NCBI GenBank assembly: GCA_964431835.1
Contig: CAYSKO010000004.1
Coordinates: 7,519 to 71,518 of the forward strand
DNA length: 64,000 nt
Reading direction: 5' to 3'
Origin: an uncultured Planctomycetia bacterium
GTDB lineage: Bacteria; Omnitrophota; Gorgyraeia; 2-02-FULL-51-18
The notes beneath the pieces were generated by a model. The model saw only the letters and a program-made list of their open reading frames with translations. It ran no database searches and was not told where the DNA came from. The translations under genes and the position numbers were made by a program. This document shows, piece by piece, positions 14,407 through 63,415 of the stretch (position 1 is the stretch's first letter; the number at the start of each line of letters is the position of its first letter).

Positions 14407-15577
14407 AGCGAAGAGCCCGTACAGGGTCCAAGCGGCCGGCCATCCACGCGGGATAGAACGCCGAAACGAGGCTGAGGACGATGGCGGTCGCGACGACCAG
14501 GAACGTATCCTGGAGGTCCATCCGCACCGGAATGCGGTTCACGTAATAAATCTCCTTGGGCAGCTCGAGCAGCGGGTAGCGGTCAAGCGCCCAGCAGAGC
14601 GTTGAACCGACCGCGAGCCCCGCAGCCGCTCCGGCGACGCCGATAAAGAGGCCGTCGTACACGAAAATCCGCACGAGCGCACCCGGCGACGCGCCCAGCG
14701 CCTTCAACACGCCCATGTCCTTCGTCTTGTCCATGACGAGAATCGTGAGGCTGCCGGCGATATTGAGACACGCGACGAGGATGATGAGCGCGAGGATCAG
14801 GAACATCACCACCTTCTCGAGCTTGAGCGCCGCGAAAAGCATGCGGTTCATGTCCATCCAGGTCCGCACGCGGAATCCTGAGAGTTTGGGAGCGAGGGAT
14901 TTTTTGAACGCGTCCGCGCGGTCGGGGTCATCGAGCGCGACAGAGACACCGGTCACCGCCTCCCCCATTCCGTAAAGACTCTGCGCGTTGGCGAGGTTGA
15001 GGAAAAGGAGGTTCGCGTCGTACTCGTACATGCCGGACGAAAAAATTCCCTCCACGCGGAACGTGCGCGGCTTGTCCTGCTTCTGCGTGAGGATCTTGAA
15101 TTCGGAACCCATGACGAGCCCGGCGCGCTTGGCGAGTTCGAGGCCGAGCACCGCGCCGTCGGGGGCGTCGGTGAGCGCACCGCGCGAGACATGGCGCCCG
15201 AACCGGGAGACTTTCTCTTCGGCCTTCGGGTCGAGGCCGCGCACAAGGACACCGGTTCCCCAGTCGCCGCTTTGGAGGAGCGCCTGGCCCTCGACGTACG
15301 GCGCGGCGCCGACCGCGCCCGGTAAGGCGGCGAGCTTCGCGGTGAGCGCGGCGTGCCCCGTGAGCAACGGATCCTTTTCGACGGAGACGTGCGCGTGCAG
15401 GCCAATGATTCGTTCCTTCAAGTCCGAATCGAAGCCGTTCATCACGGCGAGGGTGGTGATGAGGGCAGCGACACCGACGGCGATGCCGAGAATGGAGATA
15501 GTTCCGATGATTCCGACGAAGGGGTGGCGCCGTTTGGAGAAGATATAGCGCCTCGCGATCAGGCGCTCCGCGCTCAT
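14399..15577 (-). CDS. lolC: lipoprotein-releasing system permease (LolC/LolE family, FtsX-like)
   Basis: 392 aa; N-terminal TM, large periplasmic loop, C-terminal FtsX-like 3-TM bundle. A single permease gene next to lolD. Confidence 0.8.
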   Translation of the reverse strand: MSAERLIARRYIFSKRRHPFVGIIGTISILGIAVGVAALITTLAVMNGFDSDLKERIIGLHAHVSVEKDPLLTGHAALTAKLAALPGAVGAAPYVEGQALLQSGDWGTGVLVRGLDPKAEEKVSRFGRHVSRGALTDAPDGAVLGLELAKRAGLVMGSEFKILTQKQDKPRTFRVEGIFSSGMYEYDANLLFLNLANAQSLYGMGEAVTGVSVALDDPDRADAFKKSLAPKLSGFRVRTWMDMNRMLFAALKLEKVVMFLILALIILVACLNIAGSLTILVMDKTKDMGVLKALGASPGALVRIFVYDGLFIGVAGAAAGLAVGSTLCWALDRYPLLELPKEIYYVNRIPVRMDLQDTFLVVATAIVLSLVSAFYPAWMAGRLDPVRALRYE

Positions 15578-17046
15578 GCGCCTTTCTCGGGCTTCATCTG
15601 CGGGAAAAGAATGACTTCGCGAATCGAGGGCTGGGTAACGAGAAGCATCGTGAGGCGGTCGATCCCGATTCCCAGACCGCCGGCGGGCGGCATGCCGTGC
15701 TCGAGCGCGTAGAGGAAGTCCTCGTCGAGCGCCTGCTCTGGTTTTTTGCCCGCTTCTTTCAATTCTTCCATAAAGCGCTCGCGCTGCTCGATCGGGTCGT
15801 TCTGCTCCGAATAGCCGTTGGCGACTTCCATTCCGCCCACGTACAACTCGAAGCGGTCGGCCAGGTGCGGGTTCTTTTTGTTCTTGCGCGCAAGCGGCGA
15901 GATTTCAGCGAAGTATTCGGTGACGAAGAAGGGCTCGAGCACGGAGGCGTCGCCGGAAGGATTCACCGGCAGAAGGTCGCCGACGATGTTGATGATCTGC
16001 GTGCGCGAGACGTTCTGGCCCTTCACGTCGACGCCCTTCTCCTTCAGCTTCACGATCCACGAGGCGAGCTCGTCCTCGGGCACGATGCCGAAATGCTCTT
16101 TCATGAGACCCGCGAAAGACAGGCGGTGCCACTTCGAAAGGTCAAGCGTCTTGCCCTCGCCGGCAGGGATCTGCAGCTTACCGAACGCAGCGAGCGCCGC
16201 GTTCTTCACGATCTCTTCGCAGAGATCCATCACGTTATTCACGTCGTGGTACGCCGTGTAGACCTCGAGCATCGTGAACTCGGGGTTGTGGCGCGTCGAG
16301 ATGCCTTCGTTACGGAAACTTTTGTTCACCTCGTAGACCTTCTCGTACCCGCCGACGAGAAGCTTCTTGAGATAAAGTTCGGGAGCGACGCGCAGGAAAA
16401 GCGGAATGTCGAGCGCCTCGTGGTGAGTCGCGAACGGCTTGCCGGCCGCGCCGCCGGGGATCGGATGCATCATCGGGGTCTCAACTTCGAGATAGCCTTT
16501 GTCGTCCAGGGTCTTTCGGATCGAACGCACGATCTGCGACCTCTTCTTGAAAATCTCTCGCGATTCCTCGTTCGCGATGAGGTCGAGGTACCGGTGGCGA
16601 TAACGCTTCTCGACGTCCTTCAAACCGTGCCATTTCTCGGGCATCGGGCGAAGGCTCTTCGAAAGGAGGTGGATGCGGGACGCGCGGATCGATATCTCCC
16701 CCGTCTTCGTCGTGAAGAGCTCGCCTTCGACGCCGATCCAGTCGCCGAGATCGAGAAGGTCGAACACCGCGCGGTCGGTTTCGGGGAGCTCCTCTTTCTT
16801 CACGAAAAGCTGCACGCGGCCGGAGTCATCGCGCAGGTCGCAGAAGACGGTCTTTCCCATGAACCGCATCGCCGAAAGGCGGCCGGCCGAAACGACGGAT
16901 TTCTTGTCGGCGAAGCCCGCGACCGTGGCCGCGATCGGCTCGGTTTTGGGGAACGCGCCGCCGAACGGATCGATCCCGAGCGCCTTTAAGGCCTCGAGTT
17001 TCCGGTAACGTTCCTTCAGGAGATCGTTCGTCTGGAGATCGCTCAT
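15574..17046 (-). CDS. lysS: lysine--tRNA ligase (class II)
   Basis: 490 aa; N-terminal OB anticodon-binding fold and class II catalytic core; ATG at 17044-17046. Confidence 0.92.
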   Translation of the reverse strand: MSDLQTNDLLKERYRKLEALKALGIDPFGGAFPKTEPIAATVAGFADKKSVVSAGRLSAMRFMGKTVFCDLRDDSGRVQLFVKKEELPETDRAVFDLLDLGDWIGVEGELFTTKTGEISIRASRIHLLSKSLRPMPEKWHGLKDVEKRYRHRYLDLIANEESREIFKKRSQIVRSIRKTLDDKGYLEVETPMMHPIPGGAAGKPFATHHEALDIPLFLRVAPELYLKKLLVGGYEKVYEVNKSFRNEGISTRHNPEFTMLEVYTAYHDVNNVMDLCEEIVKNAALAAFGKLQIPAGEGKTLDLSKWHRLSFAGLMKEHFGIVPEDELASWIVKLKEKGVDVKGQNVSRTQIINIVGDLLPVNPSGDASVLEPFFVTEYFAEISPLARKNKKNPHLADRFELYVGGMEVANGYSEQNDPIEQRERFMEELKEAGKKPEQALDEDFLYALEHGMPPAGGLGIGIDRLTMLLVTQPSIREVILFPQMKPEKGA

Positions 17047-17087
17047 AAGCGCCTTATTCTATTCGACAATCGCCCCGGATGCAACAC

Positions 17088-17306
17088 GGGGAAGTTTGTG
17101 TCTTTTTCTTCTCCGGGACCACAAAGCGTTCAATTCGGCGAAAACCGTAAGCGTGGCTCCCTACGAAGAAAAAGACACAAACTTCCCCCGTAGCGGCCCC
17201 GCGAGGCGATCCGCGTCTTTCCTTCGTAGGGATCCACGCTTACGGTTCTGGTCGAATTTAGGCCTTTGTGGTCCCGTAGAAGGAAAGTCGCGGATCAGCT
17301 CGCGGG
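17088..17306. repeat. composite element of three interleaved inverted repeats (IR1 perfect 24 bp; IR2 about 56 bp imperfect; IR3 25 bp with 3 mismatches)
   Basis: IR1 17088-17111 = reverse complement of 17165-17188 (24/24). IR2 17113-17168 vs 17222-17277, core ccgtaagcgtggctccctacgaag 23/24, about 48/56 overall. IR3 17198-17222 vs 17282-17306 (22/25). Spacers 53, 53 and 59 nt. Arm order is 1L, 2L, 1R, 3L, 2R, 3R. Locally AT-richer than the flanks; no T-tracts follow any stem. Confidence 0.85.
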
Positions 17307-17309
17307 AAC

Positions 17310-18932
17310 CTATACGCGCGAGTAGGCGTGGTGCTTCGAGTGGTCGAAGTAGGCGAAGGCCGCCACGCCCCAAAGGAGGACGATGAAAAGTTCGCCGAAG
17401 CGGGTGTAGAGCGAGGTGACTCGTCGAAGCGTGATGTCCTGCGCCCGGTAGCCGGTCACGAAGATCTCTTCGCCGTTGTCCTCAACGCTTGAGAGCGTGC
17501 GGCCCGTCGCGTCGATGAAAGCCGACCAGCCCGTATTCGCCGCGCGGACCACTGGTACGCGGTTTTCGACCGCACGGAACGTCGACGCCTGTCCGTGCTG
17601 GTACGGGGCGGACGTCTTCCCGAACCAGGCGTCGTTGGTCACGTTCACGAGAAAGTTTGCGCCGTGGCGGACGAAATCGCGCGTTAGCGACGGAAACATG
17701 TCTTCGTAGCAGATGAGCGTCGCGAACTTCGCCCGGACCGCGGTCTTCCGGTGACGCGATCTCGCCTCGAAGATCGTGAATTCCTCACCTGGGGAAAAGT
17801 CACCGATCGGCGGCGAGACGGCGCGGATAAATCCGAGCAGTGGCTCCAAGGGCAGGTACTCGCCGAACGGCACGAGATGCATCTTGGAATAACGCCGGCG
17901 CTCTTCCCCGTCGGGGCCGAAGTGGATCGCGCTGTTGTAGAAACGAACACCCCGGTCGGTGACGTCGCCGATGGTCGGCGCACCGATGAGCGCCTCGGCC
18001 CGCGAATGGCGAACGAGGCTCCGGAGGTGAGCGGACATGAGCGGTTCGTCCTCGAGAAATCCCGGGAACGACGTCTCGGGCCAAACGATAAGATCGGACT
18101 TCTCAACCGCGCACATGAACGAAAGCCGCTTGTACTTCTCGAAAATGATGTTCTTGATGCGGCGGTCCCATTTCTCTTCCTGCGGCACGTTGCCCTGCAC
18201 CACCGAGACCCGGAGCACGGCCTTCGGCGCCGGCGAACGGTAAAACGTGTCCCATTCGATGAGTCGCCACGCCCCGTAGCCGAGCGCGAGCGCCCACGAC
18301 GCCGTAAAGATCGCAGCGAGGAGCGTGAGATAGCGCCGGCGGGAACCGCGTGAGAGCGCGTCCTCGGCGCGCCGGGAACCTGAGGCTTCCTTGAGCAGCT
18401 TGAAGAGCGCCGCATTCGAGAAAAGGACGAACCACGAAACGCCCCACACGCCGAAGGTGTCCGCGCACTGGATGAGCTGGACGTTCTTCCACTGCGCATG
18501 ACCGATGATCCCCAGCGGCAGGCCGCTGAAGAGGTTCGAGCGCACCCATTCGGCCAGCGTCCAGATCGACGGAATAAAAAAAACGCCACGCAGGCTGCGA
18601 CGGAACACGGTGCCGTCGAGCTCCGCGGAAGGATCGATCCACGGACGGAACGCCGCCGCGGCTGCGGCCGGATAAAGCGCGAGGTAAGCGGAGGAAAGCA
18701 CCCAGCCGGGAACCGTGACGAGCGCCATCGGATAAGAGACGGAAAGAAAAAAAGCGAAACCGAAAAGGTACGCTGTTTTCAGCGCGTCTCCGGTCGAGGG
18801 GGAGATTCCGAGGGCCGCGAAGAGAGGGACGAAAGCGACGAACTGGAGCGGCGCCCAGCGCGGATCGTGAAAACCCGCTGCCGCCGCGAGAGCCGCGAGA
18901 AGGACGACGAGCGCGTCCCTAAATCGCCTCAT
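17310..18932 (-). CDS. lnt: apolipoprotein N-acyltransferase
   Basis: 540 aa; N-terminal multi-TM domain and C-terminal CN-hydrolase (nitrilase-like) domain. Confidence 0.9.
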   Translation of the reverse strand: MRRFRDALVVLLAALAAAAGFHDPRWAPLQFVAFVPLFAALGISPSTGDALKTAYLFGFAFFLSVSYPMALVTVPGWVLSSAYLALYPAAAAAAFRPWIDPSAELDGTVFRRSLRGVFFIPSIWTLAEWVRSNLFSGLPLGIIGHAQWKNVQLIQCADTFGVWGVSWFVLFSNAALFKLLKEASGSRRAEDALSRGSRRRYLTLLAAIFTASWALALGYGAWRLIEWDTFYRSPAPKAVLRVSVVQGNVPQEEKWDRRIKNIIFEKYKRLSFMCAVEKSDLIVWPETSFPGFLEDEPLMSAHLRSLVRHSRAEALIGAPTIGDVTDRGVRFYNSAIHFGPDGEERRRYSKMHLVPFGEYLPLEPLLGFIRAVSPPIGDFSPGEEFTIFEARSRHRKTAVRAKFATLICYEDMFPSLTRDFVRHGANFLVNVTNDAWFGKTSAPYQHGQASTFRAVENRVPVVRAANTGWSAFIDATGRTLSSVEDNGEEIFVTGYRAQDITLRRVTSLYTRFGELFIVLLWGVAAFAYFDHSKHHAYSRV

Positions 18933-21515: not shown

Positions 21516-22623
21516 TTATCCTTTCGAATCCGCGCCCAGTGAGCGCAGGTACGCCTCGAGAAATCCGTCGATATCGCCGTCCATGACCGCCTGCGAGTTC
21601 GAGGTTTCGAAATCCGTCCGGTGATCCTTCACCATACGGTACGGGTAGAGAACGTAGGAGCGTATCTGGCTGCCCCAAGCGATCTCCTGCTTTTCGCCGT
21701 ACGACTTCTGTTGTTCCGCATTGCGCTTGGCCATCTCACGCTCGTAGAGACGGCTTTTCAGCACCTTGAGCGCGGTGGCGCGATTCTTGATCTGAGAGCG
21801 TTCGTTTTGGCACTGCACGACCAGGCCCGAGGCCATATGCGTGATACGGACCGCCGAATCGGTGGTGTTGACGCCCTGACCGCCTTTGCCGCCCGAGCGG
21901 AACACGTCCACGCGGATGTCCACGTCCTTCACTTCGATCTTGATATCGTCCTCGACCTCGGGGATCACTTCGACGGAGGCGAACGAGGTGTGGCGTCGTT
22001 TGTTGGAGTCGAACGGCGAGATGCGGACGAGTCGGTGAACGCCGTTTTCCGATTTCATATACCCGTAGACGAAGGAACCTTCGACGAGCATCGTCACGTT
22101 CTTCACGCCGGCTTCTTCGCCGGGGAGCAGGTCGATGATGTCGATCTTATGGCCATGCTGCTCCGCCCAGCGCGTGTACATGCGAAGCAGCATCGATGCC
22201 CAATCGCAGGCCTCGGTGCCGCCGGCGCCCGCGTTGATGGCGACGATCGCGCTATTCTTGTCGGCGGGACCGGAAAGAAGCTTCTGGAATTCGAGCGCTC
22301 CGACACCTTTCACGAAAGCGGAAAGCTCCGCGTCCAGGTGTTTGAGGGATTCGGCGTCGCCGTCTTCGGTGATTTCGAGCAGGCCGTCGAGTTCGGCGCC
22401 TTCTTCCCGAAGCCGGACGTAAGAGCCGGTGCTCGCCTTCAGCGCTTTCAGCTCCTGGATCACGGCATTCTGGCCGCCGCCGGACGTCCAAAAATCGGAC
22501 TCGGCTATCTTGCTCTCTAGCTCGTCGACTCGGCTCCTGAGTTTATCGACGTCAAAGATACCTCCCCAGGGCGTCGAGCTTCTCGCGCGCGGCCTTGAGT
22601 TTTTCCTGCAGATCCTTTTTCAA
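21516..22623 (-). CDS. prfB: peptide chain release factor 2, translated via programmed +1 frameshift (join 22623..22555 and 22553..21516, minus strand)
   Basis: Frame 0: TTG at 22621-22623 gives (M)KKDLQEKLKAAREKLDALGRYL, then in-frame TGA at 22552-22554. The +1 frame continues DVDKLRSRVDELESKIAESDFW... into ORF 21516..22463, which carries the RF2 SPF motif and GGQ. Total 368 aa. Confidence 0.9.
22551..22566 (-). other. RF2 autoregulatory +1 frameshift site: SD-like GGGAGG, then UAU CUU UGA C
   Basis: Minus strand reads GGGAGG TAT CTT TGA C: the canonical CUU UGA C slippery/stop context with an upstream Shine-Dalgarno-like element 3 nt before CUU. Confidence 0.85.
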
Positions 22624-37115: not shown

Positions 37116-38034
37116 CGACCCCCACCCTCGCCCGGTTCAAAGACAGTTCCAAGATTTTAACACAAAGCGCGGGAAAGTCGATTCCCGCCGCCTTGGCCGC
37201 TTTGGGGAGCAGGCTCTTGCCCGTGAGGCCGGGAATGGTGTTGATCTCGAGCACGTACGGCTCCCGGTCGTCTTCCGACAGGATCACGTCGACGCGGCCC
37301 ATGACCTCGCAGCCGATCGCGCGGTAAGCCGTGAGCGCCGCGGACCCGACGCGGGCGGCTTCGTCGGCCGAAAGACGCGCCGGCGCCTCGTAGCGCGTGC
37401 CCGACTCTCCGTACTTCGCCTCGTAATCGTAAAATTTACGGCCAGGGATCACCTCCACCACCGGCAGCGCCTCGTCGCCCAAAATGCCGACCGTCAGCTC
37501 GCGGCCCTTCACGAAGCGATCCACCACCGCGTGGTCTGAGAAACGGAACGCCTCCTCGAGCGCCGCCTGAAAACCCGACGGGTCGCGCACGATCGTCACG
37601 CCACAGCTCGACCCGGACGTCGCGGGCTTCACGACGAACGGCGCGCCGAACGGCGCGCGGCCGGGAACAGCGTCTTTAGCGATGACGCGGAAATCGGGAA
37701 CGCGGATGCCCGCCTCCTTAAAAATGGCTTGGGCGCGCGACTTGTCGAAAGAGCGCTCGCTCGCAGCGGCCCCCGCCCCCGTGTAACGGATGCCCTCCGC
37801 CTCGAGGAGGCGTTGGATCTGCCCGTCCTCGCCGAAGGTTCCGTGAAGCGCGATGAACGCGGCCTTGGCTCCCGAGGCGCGAAGCTCCGAAAGGAAATCC
37901 CCAACGGGATCGACCACGACGACTTCGAATCCGGCGGAACGCAGCGCTTCGGCCACGGCCTTTCCGGACACGAGCGAGACTTCGCGTTCGCACGACGGGC
38001 CGCCCGCGAGGACGGCGATTTTTTTGGGAATCAC
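37108..38034 (-). CDS. ddl: D-alanine--D-alanine ligase
   Basis: GTG at 38032-38034 overlapping the murC-murB stop (GTGA); product (M)IPKKIAVLAGGPS...; ATP-grasp; 309 aa. The track ORF 37108..38238 over-extends. Confidence 0.85.
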   Translation of the reverse strand: MIPKKIAVLAGGPSCEREVSLVSGKAVAEALRSAGFEVVVVDPVGDFLSELRASGAKAAFIALHGTFGEDGQIQRLLEAEGIRYTGAGAAASERSFDKSRAQAIFKEAGIRVPDFRVIAKDAVPGRAPFGAPFVVKPATSGSSCGVTIVRDPSGFQAALEEAFRFSDHAVVDRFVKGRELTVGILGDEALPVVEVIPGRKFYDYEAKYGESGTRYEAPARLSADEAARVGSAALTAYRAIGCEVMGRVDVILSEDDREPYVLEINTIPGLTGKSLLPKAAKAAGIDFPALCVKILELSLNRARVGVDG

Positions 38035-40316
38035 AGGATCTTCACCTCGGTTTCGAGATCGACGTCGAATTTTTTCTTCACTTCCTCCTGCACCTCGCGG
38101 ATGAGCCGCACCACGTCCTCGGAAGACGCGCCGCCCAGATTCACGATGAAATTGGCGTGACGCGCGGATACCTGCGCGCGCCCGACGGTCCGCCCCTTCA
38201 GACCCGCATCGTCGATAAGCTTCCCGGCGCTCGCGCACTGCGCGTTGTCCGGGTTCTTGAACATGCAGCCCGCGCTCGGATGCTGGAGATCCTGGGTTTT
38301 GAAGCGGTAGTCGCGGTATTCCTCCAGGCGCTTCAACGTCTCGGCTTTTTCGGCTGCAGGCAGGCGGAACGCCGCTTCCGCGATCACGACGTCCGTGAGT
38401 CCAGAAGCCCGGTAACGGAACGGGATTTCCTCGCGCTTCATCGCGAACGGCCGGCCGTCGAAACGCACCCCGGCCACTCTCTCGACGCGCGCGTCGATTG
38501 ATTGCTTATGGCTTCCCGCGTTCATCGCGACGGAACCGCCGACGTTCCCCGGGATGCCCGCGAGGAATTCGCAGCCACCTAAGCTCCGCTCCACAGCGAA
38601 CTGGATGAACACGGTGTTCGGTACGCCCGCGCGCGCGACCACGAGGCCGTCCGTCTCCACGCGGATCTCCTTCCAATACGGCCCAGCGAGATGGATCACC
38701 GCGCCGTCCACCCCGTCGTCGGGCGCGACGAGATTGGACCCCGCGCCGATCACCTGGACGGAGATGCCGCTCCGGCGGCAGAAGTCGAGGGCGCGTGCCA
38801 AGTCGTCGACATCCTCCGGTTCGAGCCAGTACTCGGCCGGCCCACCGACCTTCAGCATCGTATGCTTGGAGAGAGGCTCCTCCCGGAGCGTCTTGCCCCG
38901 GAATCCTGGAAAAAGAGGCGCGCGGTCGGGCGACGGCGCGCGGCGCTCGGCAAGCCATTCGGCCGCCTTGTGCGCGATCTGATAAACGTCGCCGGCGCCG
39001 AGCGCGAGAAAAAGATCGCCGGGCTTAAGCTCGGCGAGCACCGCCTCTTCGAGCTTCGCGCGTTCCACGTAGCGCGCGTCGGCGTGGCCGGTCGCCGTGA
39101 CCGCCGCGGCGAGGCGCTCCCCGCTCACGCCCTCGATCGGCGTCTCGCTTGCGGCGTAGACGTCTGTCACGAAAAGCTTATCCACGTCGCCGAAGCTCAC
39201 GGCGAACCCTTCGAGAAAGTCGCGCGTGCGCGTATAGCGGTGCGGCTGGAACGCGGCGAAAAGGCGACGGGGCTTAAGGGCGCGTGCGGCGGCCAGCGTC
39301 TTCTGAAGCTCGGTGGGATGGTGAGCGTAATCGTCAACGATCGTGAATTCGGCGTCTTCGAAACGCACGTCGAAGCGGCGGCCGGCGCCGAGGTATTTCC
39401 CGAGGGCGCGCGAGATCGTCTCGAAGGGAATCCCGATTTTAAGTCCCACGCCGATCGCCGCGAGCGAATTGAGCACGTTGTGCTTACCGATGATGCGAAG
39501 ATGCACGATCCCGAGGCACAGGCCGTCCTTCCAGGCCCGGTACGAGACACCCCGTTTTCCTCCGGGACATTCGACGACGTCGGTCGCGTAGATGCCGGCT
39601 TTGCGGGGCTCGAGCCCGTAGAGGGTCGCGCGGCGCAGGCGCTCACCCGCGAGCTTGGCCACGCGCGGATCGTCGCCGCAGCCAAACCACTCGCCCTCGC
39701 GCGGAAGGCGCTCGATGAACGCGCGGAATGCGTCCTCGACACGCTCCACCGTGCCGAAATGGTCCAGGTGCTCGGCTTCCACGTTTGTGACGACCGCAAG
39801 GTGGGGGGCGAAGCGCAGGAACGACGAGTCGCTCTCGTCGGCCTCGATGACGATCTCGGGGCCGCTGCCCACGACGGCGTTCCCGCCGAACGAGATCACG
39901 AGCCCGCCGACGACGATCGACGGATCGCGGCCCGCCTCCTGCAATACGGTGCCGACGAGCGCGGTGGTCGTGGTCTTTCCGTGCGTGCCAGCGATCGCGA
40001 TGGTGCGCTTGTCGCGGCAGATGTCGGCGAGCGCCTCGGCGCGGTGCATGATCTGGAGTCCCCTCTCGCGCGCCGCGCGGCGCTCGGGATGATCCTCAGG
40101 GATCGAAGAGGAATAAACGACCACGTCCGCGCCGTTGATATGCGAGGCGTCGTGTCCGATCATGATCCGCATGCCGGAGCGCTCCATCGACGTCAGAAGT
40201 TCGGTCTTCTTCACGTCGCTGCCCTGCACGTTCCAGCCGCGCGACTGGTAGATTCGCGCGATGCCGCTCATGCCGATGCCGCCGATACCGATCAGATGCA
40301 CCCGTTTGGCGTTCAT
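38031..40316 (-). CDS. murC: fused UDP-N-acetylmuramate--L-alanine ligase / UDP-N-acetylenolpyruvoylglucosamine reductase (MurC-MurB fusion)
   Basis: 761 aa; residues 1-470 are MurC (GIGGIGMSG, GTHGKTTTT); residues 480-761 are MurB (FAD-binding, GAGSNL). Confidence 0.85.
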   Translation of the reverse strand: MNAKRVHLIGIGGIGMSGIARIYQSRGWNVQGSDVKKTELLTSMERSGMRIMIGHDASHINGADVVVYSSSIPEDHPERRAARERGLQIMHRAEALADICRDKRTIAIAGTHGKTTTTALVGTVLQEAGRDPSIVVGGLVISFGGNAVVGSGPEIVIEADESDSSFLRFAPHLAVVTNVEAEHLDHFGTVERVEDAFRAFIERLPREGEWFGCGDDPRVAKLAGERLRRATLYGLEPRKAGIYATDVVECPGGKRGVSYRAWKDGLCLGIVHLRIIGKHNVLNSLAAIGVGLKIGIPFETISRALGKYLGAGRRFDVRFEDAEFTIVDDYAHHPTELQKTLAAARALKPRRLFAAFQPHRYTRTRDFLEGFAVSFGDVDKLFVTDVYAASETPIEGVSGERLAAAVTATGHADARYVERAKLEEAVLAELKPGDLFLALGAGDVYQIAHKAAEWLAERRAPSPDRAPLFPGFRGKTLREEPLSKHTMLKVGGPAEYWLEPEDVDDLARALDFCRRSGISVQVIGAGSNLVAPDDGVDGAVIHLAGPYWKEIRVETDGLVVARAGVPNTVFIQFAVERSLGGCEFLAGIPGNVGGSVAMNAGSHKQSIDARVERVAGVRFDGRPFAMKREEIPFRYRASGLTDVVIAEAAFRLPAAEKAETLKRLEEYRDYRFKTQDLQHPSAGCMFKNPDNAQCASAGKLIDDAGLKGRTVGRAQVSARHANFIVNLGGASSEDVVRLIREVQEEVKKKFDVDLETEVKIL

Positions 40317-53537: not shown

Positions 53538-53873
53538 TTAGTACTGGCCGTCGCGGGCGCGGTTGGACTCGCGACTGGAATCGCCGAGGAGGCCGGGTCG
53601 GAGATGACTGCTGGAGTGGTAAGCTTCGTCGGGGTCGGGGGCTAAAAAGCCGAGATCGATCTTGCCGGAAACGCGGTTCAGGCTCTCGCGCGCGCTATCG
53701 TCGTCGGTCTCGACCACGTACGCGCCTTCGCGGAGGCTACGCGACACGTTGAACGGGTCGTGGCGCTCCCCCTTCATCTTCGGGGAAGAAGCGGCGGTTT
53801 CCTCGGCCGCGGCGGAGGCAACGGTGACGAAAAGGATCATGAGACTGTTTAAGAACGCACGTTTGTAACGCAT
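53538..53873 (-). CDS. hypothetical small secreted protein (111 aa)
   Basis: ATG at 53871-53873 with AGGA RBS; signal peptide MRYKRAFLNSLMILFVTVASAAA; GC-rich third positions. The plus-strand ORF 53382..53645 is its antisense shadow. Confidence 0.4.
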   Translation of the reverse strand: MRYKRAFLNSLMILFVTVASAAAEETAASSPKMKGERHDPFNVSRSLREGAYVVETDDDSARESLNRVSGKIDLGFLAPDPDEAYHSSSHLRPGLLGDSSRESNRARDGQY

Positions 53874-53883
53874 TTTTCCTTTG

Positions 53884-53936
53884 AAGTAAAACGAATCCGC
53901 CCTCCGCCAAGCGATCGCTCGCTTCACGGAGGACGG
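53884..53936 (-). terminator. probable terminator hairpin immediately 3' of rnpB
   Basis: Imperfect long hairpin (ccgccctccg...cggaggacgg with inner agcgatcgct palindrome), followed on the minus strand by ATTCGTTTTACTT. Confidence 0.4.
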
Positions 53937-53939
53937 GGC

Positions 53940-54315
53940 TTTGCAGGCCTGTAAGCCGGGTTCTGTGGGAGCCACTTAAGGCCCCGACGATCATTTATCT
54001 AGTCCCACCGTCTCCGGCGGGATCGCCTCCGCCTTTCGGCAGATGTAGCGGTTAACCCGGGAATCTTGGCGAGAGAGAGTCTCGCGCGGGAGCCGCCTTT
54101 CGGCCGCCCCGTTTCTTCCCCTATTCAACCTTGCTCCGCGTGGAGATTGCCCGTTTCACCCTCTCGCCGAAGCGAGAGACTCGTCTCTGTTGCTCTAATC
54201 CTTCCGTCCCGTTTCCGGACGGAGGCGGGTGTTACCCGCCACGCTCTCTTCTGGGAGCCCGGACTTTCCTCGGCGGCCACCTTGCGGCGACCGACGCGAC
54301 CGTCCAGCCTGCAAA
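53940..54315 (-). ncRNA. rnpB: RNase P RNA, bacterial type A
   Basis: Minus strand carries P4 strands GAGGAAAGTCCGGGCTCC and ACAGAACCCGGCTTA, GGGTAACACCCGCC, GGAGCAAGGTTGAATAGGGG; P1 pairs TTTGCAGGC with GCCTGCAAA; about 376 nt. Track ORFs 54066..54347, 54131..54322, 54195..54515 and 54229..54423 are spurious. Confidence 0.9.
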
Positions 54316-54343
54316 ATTGTGAAAGAACAAAGTACGAAACTTT

Positions 54344-54781
54344 TTAAATCAGCGACGCTTCGTCGAGGGCACGATTGGCTTCTTTGTCCGCGAGTTTGTT
54401 CTCTTCGCGCGGCACGTGCGTGATCGAGACTTTCTTGAAGCCGCGCTTCAGGTGATCGACCAGCGTCCAGAGCACCTTGAGTGACGCGTCCTTCACCCGG
54501 TACTCGCCGCTGCACTGCTTCGCGACCAGCTCGCTGTCGGTGAACACCGCCACTTCCTGCGCTCCCATCATGAGCGCTTCCTGCAACGCATACACGAGGG
54601 CGAAATATTCTGCGACGTTGTTCGTCGCCACGCCGATCGTTTTGCCGACGGCCTTCACGGTCACGCCGGCCGGATCCTGGAACACGATCCCCGCGGCCGC
54701 TGGCCCCGGATTGCCGCGGGCCGCGCCGTCGACGTAGACCGTGACCTGCTTCACGGCGCCCAATAAAGGATGCGCGCGCAT
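54344..54781 (-). CDS. rnhA: ribonuclease HI
   Basis: About 145 aa; VYVDGAARGNPGPAAAGIVF...TNNVAEYFALVYALQEA, RNase H fold with catalytic D/E/D. Confidence 0.8.
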   Translation of the reverse strand: MRAHPLLGAVKQVTVYVDGAARGNPGPAAAGIVFQDPAGVTVKAVGKTIGVATNNVAEYFALVYALQEALMMGAQEVAVFTDSELVAKQCSGEYRVKDASLKVLWTLVDHLKRGFKKVSITHVPREENKLADKEANRALDEASLI

Positions 54782-63271: not shown

Positions 63272-63300
63272 ATTTTCTTCGAGACCGCTGAGCTCCACCG

Positions 63301-63339
63301 AAAAAAAACGCCGCCCGTTTAAAGGGCGGCGTTTCAACT
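63301..63339. terminator. bidirectional intrinsic terminator (A8, 9-bp GC stem, T-rich tail)
   Basis: aaaaaaaa-cgccgccc-gtttaaa-gggcggcg-tttcaactt; gives a U8 tail for the minus-strand tRNA-Ala transcript and a weaker tail for the plus-strand DCC gene. Confidence 0.7.
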
Positions 63340-63415
63340 TGGTGGACCTGAGCGGTCTCGAACCGCTGACCTCCTCGTTGCGAACGAGGCGCTCTACCAA
63401 CTGAGCTACAGGCCC
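63340..63415 (-). tRNA. tRNA-Ala (anticodon CGC), CCA encoded
   Basis: GGGCCTGTAGCTCAGTTGGTAGAGCGCCTCGTTCGCAACGAGGAGGTCAGCGGTTCGAGACCGCTCAGGTCCACCA; G3:U70 alanine identity pair present. Confidence 0.9.

Follow-up and report, generated by a model that had tools for sequence, protein, structure and literature searches.

The lnt-lysS junction and its inverted repeats

We examined the 263-nt gap between lnt and lysS within the 64-kb stretch of DNA that was analysed (the window). The element under study starts 3 nt past the lnt stop codon and ends 41 nt ahead of the lysS ATG in the mRNA sense, which is the position that the initial annotation of this DNA had given it. That annotation had also described the element as richer in AT than its surroundings, and the composition confirmed this, with a GC content of 0.52-0.55 in the element against 0.60-0.65 in the flanks. 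The coordinates of the genes, the hairpins and their parts are collected in Table 1.

Three interleaved inverted repeats had been proposed for this gap: an exact 24-bp repeat (IR1), a repeat of about 56 bp (IR2) and a third, imperfect repeat (IR3). All three were recovered where they had been placed, and each proved to be longer than described. IR1, which includes the exact 24/24 stem, extends to 17088-17118/17158-17188 with arms of 31 nt matching at 90%; IR2 extends to 17104-17172/17218-17286 with arms of 69 nt matching at 84%; and IR3 extends to 17198-17232/17272-17306 with arms of 35 nt matching at 83%. The repeats are real (fold z about -9), but they are not independent of one another. The left arm of IR2 corresponds to the inner stem plus loop of one hairpin, H1, and the right arm to those of another, H3, so that the element consists of two adjacent hairpins rather than three separate repeats. 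In its simplest form, the anatomy is that of two neighbouring hairpins of about 100 bases each, H1 and H3, which have one core in common and carry it in opposite orientation.

Table 1. Positions of the genes, hairpins and core copies at the lnt-lysS junction of the window, and of the lysS promoter regions in three loci of relatives
Feature	Position	Strand	Remarks
lysS (class II lysine--tRNA ligase), downstream gene	15574-17046	-	NCBIfam NF001756, 2e-175
Spacer remainder before the lysS ATG	17047-17087	-	41 nt; outside both hairpins
Hairpin H1	17088-17188		101 nt; second hairpin in the mRNA sense
H1 outer stem	17088-17111/17165-17188		24 bp, perfect
H1 internal loop, 3x3	17112-17114/17162-17164		TCC/TAC
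H1 inner stem, 8 bp	17115-17122/17153-17161		one-base bulge at 17157
H1 asymmetric loop	17123-17152		30 nt
Core copy 1	17098-17178	+	81 nt; 107 bits in +, 36.6 bits in - (two-copy covariance model)
Linker CGTAGCGGC between H1 and H3	17189-17197		9 nt; centre of the compound palindrome
Hairpin H3	17198-17306		109 nt; first hairpin in the mRNA sense; begins 3 nt after the lnt stop
Core copy 2	17213-17291	-	79 nt; 100.4 bits in -, 27.3 bits in + (two-copy covariance model)
Long IR2 cross-pairing of the inverted cores	17104-17286		alternative long-hairpin fold
lnt (apolipoprotein N-acyltransferase), upstream gene	17310-18932	-	NCBIfam TIGR00546, 1e-93
lysS promoter region of a relative	L002 5654-5739
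lysS promoter region of a relative	L010 2321-2391
lysS promoter region of a relative	L013 1704-1792

Both hairpins have an inner stem of 8 bp (GGGACCAC/GTGG-N-TCCC) with a one-base bulge, followed by an asymmetric loop of 30 nt. H3 shares with H1 the inner stem and a 3x3 internal loop (TAC/TAC in H3), and its asymmetric loop runs in the opposite orientation. Outside the core the outer stems are unlike, reading GGGGAAGTTT... in H1 and CCCGCGAGCTGATCC... in H3, where the stem is GC-rich. Each outer stem is nevertheless self-complementary, that of H1 perfectly and that of H3 with 3 mismatches. The two core copies showed 88% column identity, and this only once one of them is reverse-complemented, compared with about 40% identity between the outer stems. 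The inverted arrangement of the cores follows from the covariance-model scores of 107 and 100 bits for opposite orientations against 37 and 27 bits for the same orientation.

Because the stems are symmetric, the opposite orientation of H1 and H3 is defined by the loop and the bulge only, and the pair could equally be explained by direct duplication and a later flip of one loop. Over 15 aligned positions, the outer stems of H1 and H3 showed 6 identities, 6 transitions and 3 transversions. Homology of the outer stems is suggestive from this alignment, with p about 0.02-0.05 before allowing for alignment choice, and is not significant.

Folding and strand symmetry

Folding of both strands, which had been proposed as a check, gave about -131 kcal/mol on either strand, far beyond the -82 to -85 kcal/mol of dinucleotide shuffles. 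The z scores of the two strands were -9.3 and -9.45, and none of 200 shuffles folded as well. The stems of the predicted fold consisted of Watson-Crick pairs almost throughout; of about 60 pairs, no more than one was G-U. Fold energies of the single hairpins were -55.5 (+) and -59.1 (-) for H1 and -71.3 (+) and -63.6 (-) for H3, with no consistent strand preference. As modelled, Watson-Crick stems and the lack of a consistent strand preference would fit palindromy at the level of DNA rather than selection for an RNA on a single strand.

On the mRNA-sense strand, the two-hairpin form was predicted at -138.6 kcal/mol and the long-hairpin form at -141.8 kcal/mol, about 3 apart, and on the opposite strand the two forms were predicted at -144.6 and -144.1 kcal/mol, respectively. 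The long-hairpin form had a 12-bp extension with 5 G-U pairs on the mRNA-sense strand only. The region around the lysS AAGG/AUG was unpaired with either predicted fold, and the stems stopped short of the ribosome-binding region.

The mutual exclusion of IR2 with the other two repeats had been taken as the architecture of a two-state switch. Alternative folds of nearly equal energy do exist, but the switch found no support. Cross-pairing over stem, loop and stem is always open to two hairpins whose stems are the same and whose loops are inverted, and near-isoenergetic folds are thus expected from the geometry and are no evidence of design. IR2 and the two-state fold are by-products of two hairpins with a shared inverted core. 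More generally, duplicating a hairpin with its loop inverted is enough to generate interleaved inverted repeats together with near-isoenergetic folds, and neither should be mistaken for a riboswitch-like design.

Coding capacity, transcription signals and known families

The six frames of the element, concatenated, were searched against 5.8 billion protein clusters, a search that was aimed at spurious ORFs called on other copies of the element. Nothing was found at E<=10, and on this search the element is non-coding, as had been expected of it. No terminator-like site was found at the element by the scanner or by direct reading, and no U-tract follows the hairpins. An intrinsic terminator, which the initial annotation had also discounted, was rejected for want of a GC-rich hairpin followed by a U-tract. 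No promoter was found within or after the element at the threshold of the scanner. Below that threshold, a weak promoter-like pair in the 41-nt remainder (TTGCAT, 17084-17079; 17 nt; TAGAAT, 17061-17056) would make an almost leaderless mRNA.

An Rfam search of 16800-17600 at E<=10 returned only miRNA and CRISPR-repeat noise, with no T-box or lysine-riboswitch signal. The best match was a miRNA model with 28.5 bits against a gathering score of 71. At the gathering threshold, Rfam returned only RNase P RNA and three tRNAs in the whole window. A T-box likeness of GUGGUCCCGG was without Rfam support. A riboswitch, T-box or known leader was rejected on the lack of a curated-family match, of conservation in relatives, and of a terminator or sequestration of the RBS, which agrees with the initial annotation, where the element was not recognised as any known riboswitch, T-box or ncRNA family.

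Two classes of DNA element were likewise rejected. The R''/R' core sites of integron attC (RYYYAAC / GTTRRRY) were absent from both strands, and the IHF consensus was absent from the element. Tn3-type ends consist of a GGGG tip and an inner ACGYTAAG; a GGGG start was present in H1 only, and the ACGCTTACG motif sits in the asymmetric loop.

The junction in relatives

The best matches to Lnt were labelled Candidatus Omnitrophica. Since the closest Lnt outside the source population was only 58% identical, the lineage is one without a close sequenced relative. The gene order RF-secA-lnt-lysS-lolCE-lolD-ilvE was kept in relatives, and the lnt-lysS gaps of the four nearest syntenic relatives measured 99, 86, 67 and 89 nt, compared with 263 nt here. 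The element was missing at the lnt-lysS junction of all four, which retain secA-lnt-lysS-lolCE synteny. No long inverted repeat or hairpin was present in the three relative spacers that could be read, and the core covariance model had no match on six loci of relatives. One distant relative (P0013) had an lnt-lysS gap of 354 nt. Because the element is absent from relatives with a conserved junction, it is lineage-specific, and absence of this kind had been named beforehand as favouring a recent insertion. On this comparison, the element is specific to the present Omnitrophota-like lineage and is not a conserved part of lysS control.

The three readable spacers each contained a sigma-70-type promoter (TTGACA, TTGACT or TTGACG, 17-18 nt, TATAAT) at or just past the lnt stop (Table 1). 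A leader of about 40 nt follows this promoter, and a shared motif, CCTAACAA...AAATGAATAAsTTATG or a variant of it, precedes lysS. In the window, AATAGAATAAGG in the 41-nt remainder resembles the leader motif of the relatives, AAATGAATAAG. The canonical promoter of the relatives is absent in the window, and the double hairpin occupies its position. An insertion at the site of the relatives' lysS promoter raises the small question of how lysS is transcribed in this lineage.

A separate observation concerns a distant relative (GCA_964447745.1) where lysS does not come next after lnt. There, 10 nt beyond the lnt stop, lies an unrelated element of 154 nt (L012 4130-4283) with perfect terminal inverted repeats of 15 bp. 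Its fold z was -5.1, and it had no Rfam match.

Three assemblies and a probable template-switch footprint

The 263-nt spacer was identical in the window, in the JGI contig Ga0163151_10000538 and in the Logan contig SRR6448207_399551. The JGI contig, which carries the same genes, is 66,250 bp long. By coordinates, the window (positions 1-800) reaches about 798 nt past its end and must therefore stem from a different, longer record of a near-identical population. The window and the JGI contig differed at two positions in 7.6 kb, and the window and the Logan contig also differed at two positions, other than those that separate it from the JGI contig. A spacer that is identical in three assemblies that differ by SNPs elsewhere is therefore not to be put down to an artefact.

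The differences between the window and the JGI contig are 5 nt apart, at 17552 and 17557 in lnt, and change Lnt by V459G and V461L. In the mRNA sense, this region reads CGCGTACCAGTGGTCCGCG in the window and CGCGGACCACTGGTCCGCG in the JGI contig. The two-base change perfects a 9-bp quasipalindrome, in which the single arm mismatch is corrected, and it also complements the central base. Template switching at quasipalindromes yields arm-correcting changes of this kind (PMC7202029). The change looks like the trace of one template-switch event at a quasipalindrome, polymorphic within the population, and, so read, it shows that template-switch events occur in this population.

Search for further copies

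No second locus of the core was found in the 64-kb window, whether up to 3 mismatches were allowed, blastn-short was used or the core covariance model was run with filters off. The scans of sequence collections, whose negatives are weak in that they used exact patterns of 19-21 bases and never returned the source contig, gave two matches in metagenome contigs (pattern ACCACAAAGN{14,22}CCGTAAGCGTGG), both in unrelated coding sequence; one chance match in genome contigs (pattern CCGTAAGCGTGGNTCCCTAC), in an archaeal gene; and chance matches or nothing in viral contigs (two patterns). The genome itself was covered over about 66 kb. A blastn search against plasmids and phages returned nothing.

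Transposase, RAYT, integrase and reverse transcriptase genes were all missing among the ORFs of the window with a Pfam or NCBIfam match; several further ORFs had no such match. The matched ORFs were all of housekeeping type, comprising the mla operon, clpC/mcsB, the dcw cluster, rib genes, rpoD, dnaG and others. No target-site duplication was found, and the flanks, in the order CAACAC, H1, CGTAGCGGC, H3 and AACCTA, were without a direct repeat.

Comparison with known systems

The closest architecture is that of BIMEs and REP doublets (REPINs). These are non-coding, proteobacterial and extragenic, often lying between cistrons; their units are imperfect palindromes, and neighbouring units stand in opposite orientation and can pair into a longer hairpin (PMC3116915, PMC3337134). 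The element is similar in that its units are imperfect palindromes in an extragenic, co-transcribed position, and in that adjacent units are opposite in orientation and fold singly or cross-pair. However, its units measure 101 and 109 nt and those of REP 20-40 nt, and the element has a conserved inner stem and loop with a varying stem base, whereas REPINs have conserved hairpin ends. REPINs also occur in tens to hundreds per genome together with a RAYT, while the element is known from one locus and no RAYT was present among the window ORFs scanned.

The element also resembles the Correia and ERIC MITEs in size and likely RNA behaviour. ERIC is a hairpin-forming MITE that is grouped with the Correia elements. 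Both are about 100-150 nt long and non-coding, with inverted-repeat ends and a core, and they lie in transcribed intergenic regions, form long RNA hairpins open to binding and cutting by RNase III, and can replace or create promoters beside genes. Correia repeat-enclosed elements bind RNase III and are either cleaved or protected by it (PMC2649163). Like MITEs, the element has terminal inverted repeats and no coding capacity. In contrast, Correia and ERIC MITEs have a target-site duplication (TA for CREE), conserved terminal repeats and many copies, and the element has no target-site duplication, variable ends and just two adjacent copies in the searched sequence.

A third comparison is with the products of template switching, which perfects imperfect inverted repeats and can invert the sequence between their arms (PMC7202029). 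The perfect 24-bp stem of the element, its Watson-Crick-only stems, and its shared stems with flipped loops all fit such products. However, documented template-switch events usually concern short palindromes of 10-30 nt, and a compound palindrome of 220 nt is an extrapolation from these. Template switching also leaves the origin of the core unexplained, as the rest of the window contains no source for it.

Origin of the element

With somewhat better than even confidence, we read the element as a lineage-specific, non-coding compound DNA palindrome that arose either by a BIME/REPIN- or MITE-like insertion or by duplication and template switching, and whose effects on RNA would be incidental. 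The element would be made of two diverged copies of one hairpin module of about 80-100 nt, which lie next to each other and whose asymmetric loops face opposite ways. It would have entered or arisen in the short lnt-lysS spacer, where relatives place the lysS promoter. It may have come as a palindromic repeat of the BIME/REPIN or MITE kind, or it may have formed through local duplication followed by template switching during replication. Template switching, through arm correction and loop inversion, could keep the arms of H1 and H3 complementary during drift and could flip a loop.

In a transcript reading through from secA-lnt, H3 would probably fold first and H1 next. Duplexes of 24 bp and about 30 bp are classic substrates of RNase III and barriers to 3' exonucleases. 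Those of the element, which are nearly perfect, may accordingly serve as a target for RNase III, block 3' exonucleases or terminate transcription leakily without a U-tract, and the hairpins would then uncouple the lnt and lysS mRNAs and not act as a ligand-sensing switch.

A DNA-level element like REP/BIME or MITE sequences, or a recent insertion, was among the suggestions of the initial annotation. The anatomy and the absence from relatives fit this suggestion, but dispersed copies, which such a family would have, were not found in the 64 kb or in the collections. Membership in a repeat family is unproven on this count, no second core locus having been found in the 64-kb window or by the exact-pattern scans of collections. 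The palindrome reading also has against it the missing target-site duplication, the lack of a transposase, RAYT or integrase among the Pfam-matched genes of the window, and a core that is conserved beside variable outer stems, the reverse of typical MITEs and REPINs. A core with 88% identity beside outer stems with about 40% identity that are fully paired all the same could reflect selection on the core and on pairing, that is, function. If the reading as a lineage-specific compound palindrome is right, the element is a routine, if handsome, case of junk or selfish DNA with palindromic structure in an uncultivated phylum.

Alternative explanations

A clearly less probable explanation is that of a selected intercistronic RNA element, whose stem-loops would fix the 3' end of the secA-lnt mRNA, govern its stability or attenuate read-through into lysS, by terminating without a U-tract, by being processed by RNase III or by blocking 3' exonucleases. 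The placement of the element is consistent with such a role, as only 3 nt separate it from the lnt stop on one side and from the weak -35-like hexamer on the other. Its predicted structures have very high stability, the two outer stems remain paired although they differ in sequence, and comparable effects are known for Correia elements with RNase III (PMC2649163). Three features argue in the other direction. There is no U-tract, the relatives do without the element, and its stems are Watson-Crick only with no strand asymmetry, a pattern other than that which selection at the level of RNA usually leaves.

We regard it as unlikely that the element is a recognition site at the level of DNA, that is, a hairpin or cruciform for a tyrosine or HUH transposase or another recombinase, or a core that inserts into the apices of palindromes. 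In both copies the core is kept, including the one-base bulge and the 3x3 internal loop, while the palindromic arms differ, and both strands fold equally well, which speaks for such a site. A core that moved as a unit and inserted at the apex of a palindrome would also explain why the flanks are unlike and yet self-complementary. However, no partner gene was found in the 64 kb, the window searches gave no other copies, and neither an attC nor an IHF consensus was present. For a core that targets palindromes, two loop-less palindromes lying side by side would have had to exist as prior targets, which is implausible.

The initial annotation had offered a structured lysS leader as another reading. 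In E. coli, the thrS operator has two similar stem-loops upstream of the gene for a homodimeric synthetase and serves autoregulation. By analogy, two mimic hairpins bound by the dimeric LysRS might be imagined upstream of lysS, or else a two-state RNA switch specific to this gene, and we consider either a poor prospect. The case for it consists of the near-isoenergetic folds predicted for the mRNA strand (-138.6 and -141.8 kcal/mol), the 12-bp extension of the long form with 5 G-U pairs that is possible on this strand only, and the presence of two similar hairpins upstream of a homodimeric-synthetase gene. The bistability, however, is accounted for by geometry alone. The leader is conserved in none of the relatives examined, the Rfam search at E<=10 showed neither a T-box nor a lysine riboswitch, no terminator is present, and neither fold reaches the AAGG/AUG, the stems missing the ribosome-binding region; the leader proposal was thus not sustained. 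Unlike the thrS operator, the element has no 7-nt loops resembling an anticodon arm and no overlap with the RBS, its loops are opposed, and it is absent in relatives. Because the loops are mutually inverted, the two hairpins present different sequences on one RNA strand, which also speaks against such a leader.

There is an equally slim chance that the pairing of a conserved core with outer stems that are unrelated and yet self-complementary is no accident and that the element represents a new kind, either a small mobile unit that targets the apices of palindromes or a functional RNA with a constant loop module on interchangeable long duplexes, including a strand-displacement switch from the two-hairpin to the long-hairpin form and back that sets lysS expression. 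The element would be significant only if further copies with different palindromic flanks appear, or if its RNA is shown to switch.

Finally, an assembly or amplification artefact is barely credible, for although palindromic chimeras such as a chimeric inverted duplication can arise in metagenome assemblies and MDA, the spacer recurs unchanged in the three assemblies with their SNPs elsewhere, its repeats are imperfect (83-90%), and the flanking synteny is intact.

Other features of the window

Several further features were recorded in the window. A tRNA-Ala(cgc) gene at 63340-63415 (-) is followed downstream by a hairpin that resembles a terminator and is flanked on either side by A/T runs, beyond which lies an inverted copy of the last 23 or so nt of the tRNA. 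Together these form an inverted repeat at 63278-63415 with 42-nt arms matching at 81%.

An ORF of 761 aa at 38031-40316 (-) combines Mur ligase domains (MurC-like) with MurB FAD-binding and C-terminal domains and appears, by these domain matches, to be a MurC-MurB fusion in the dcw cluster. The release-factor ORF upstream of secA (21516-22463, -) is only 315 aa long, and its PCRF match begins at position 28 of the profile. A different frame may encode the N-terminus, and this would point to a programmed +1 frameshift of the prfB type.

A bacterial RNase P RNA of class A was found at 53936-54315 (-) with 170 bits. It overlaps the mechanically listed ORFs 53538-53975 and 54066-54347, and this makes it probable that neither of them is a gene.
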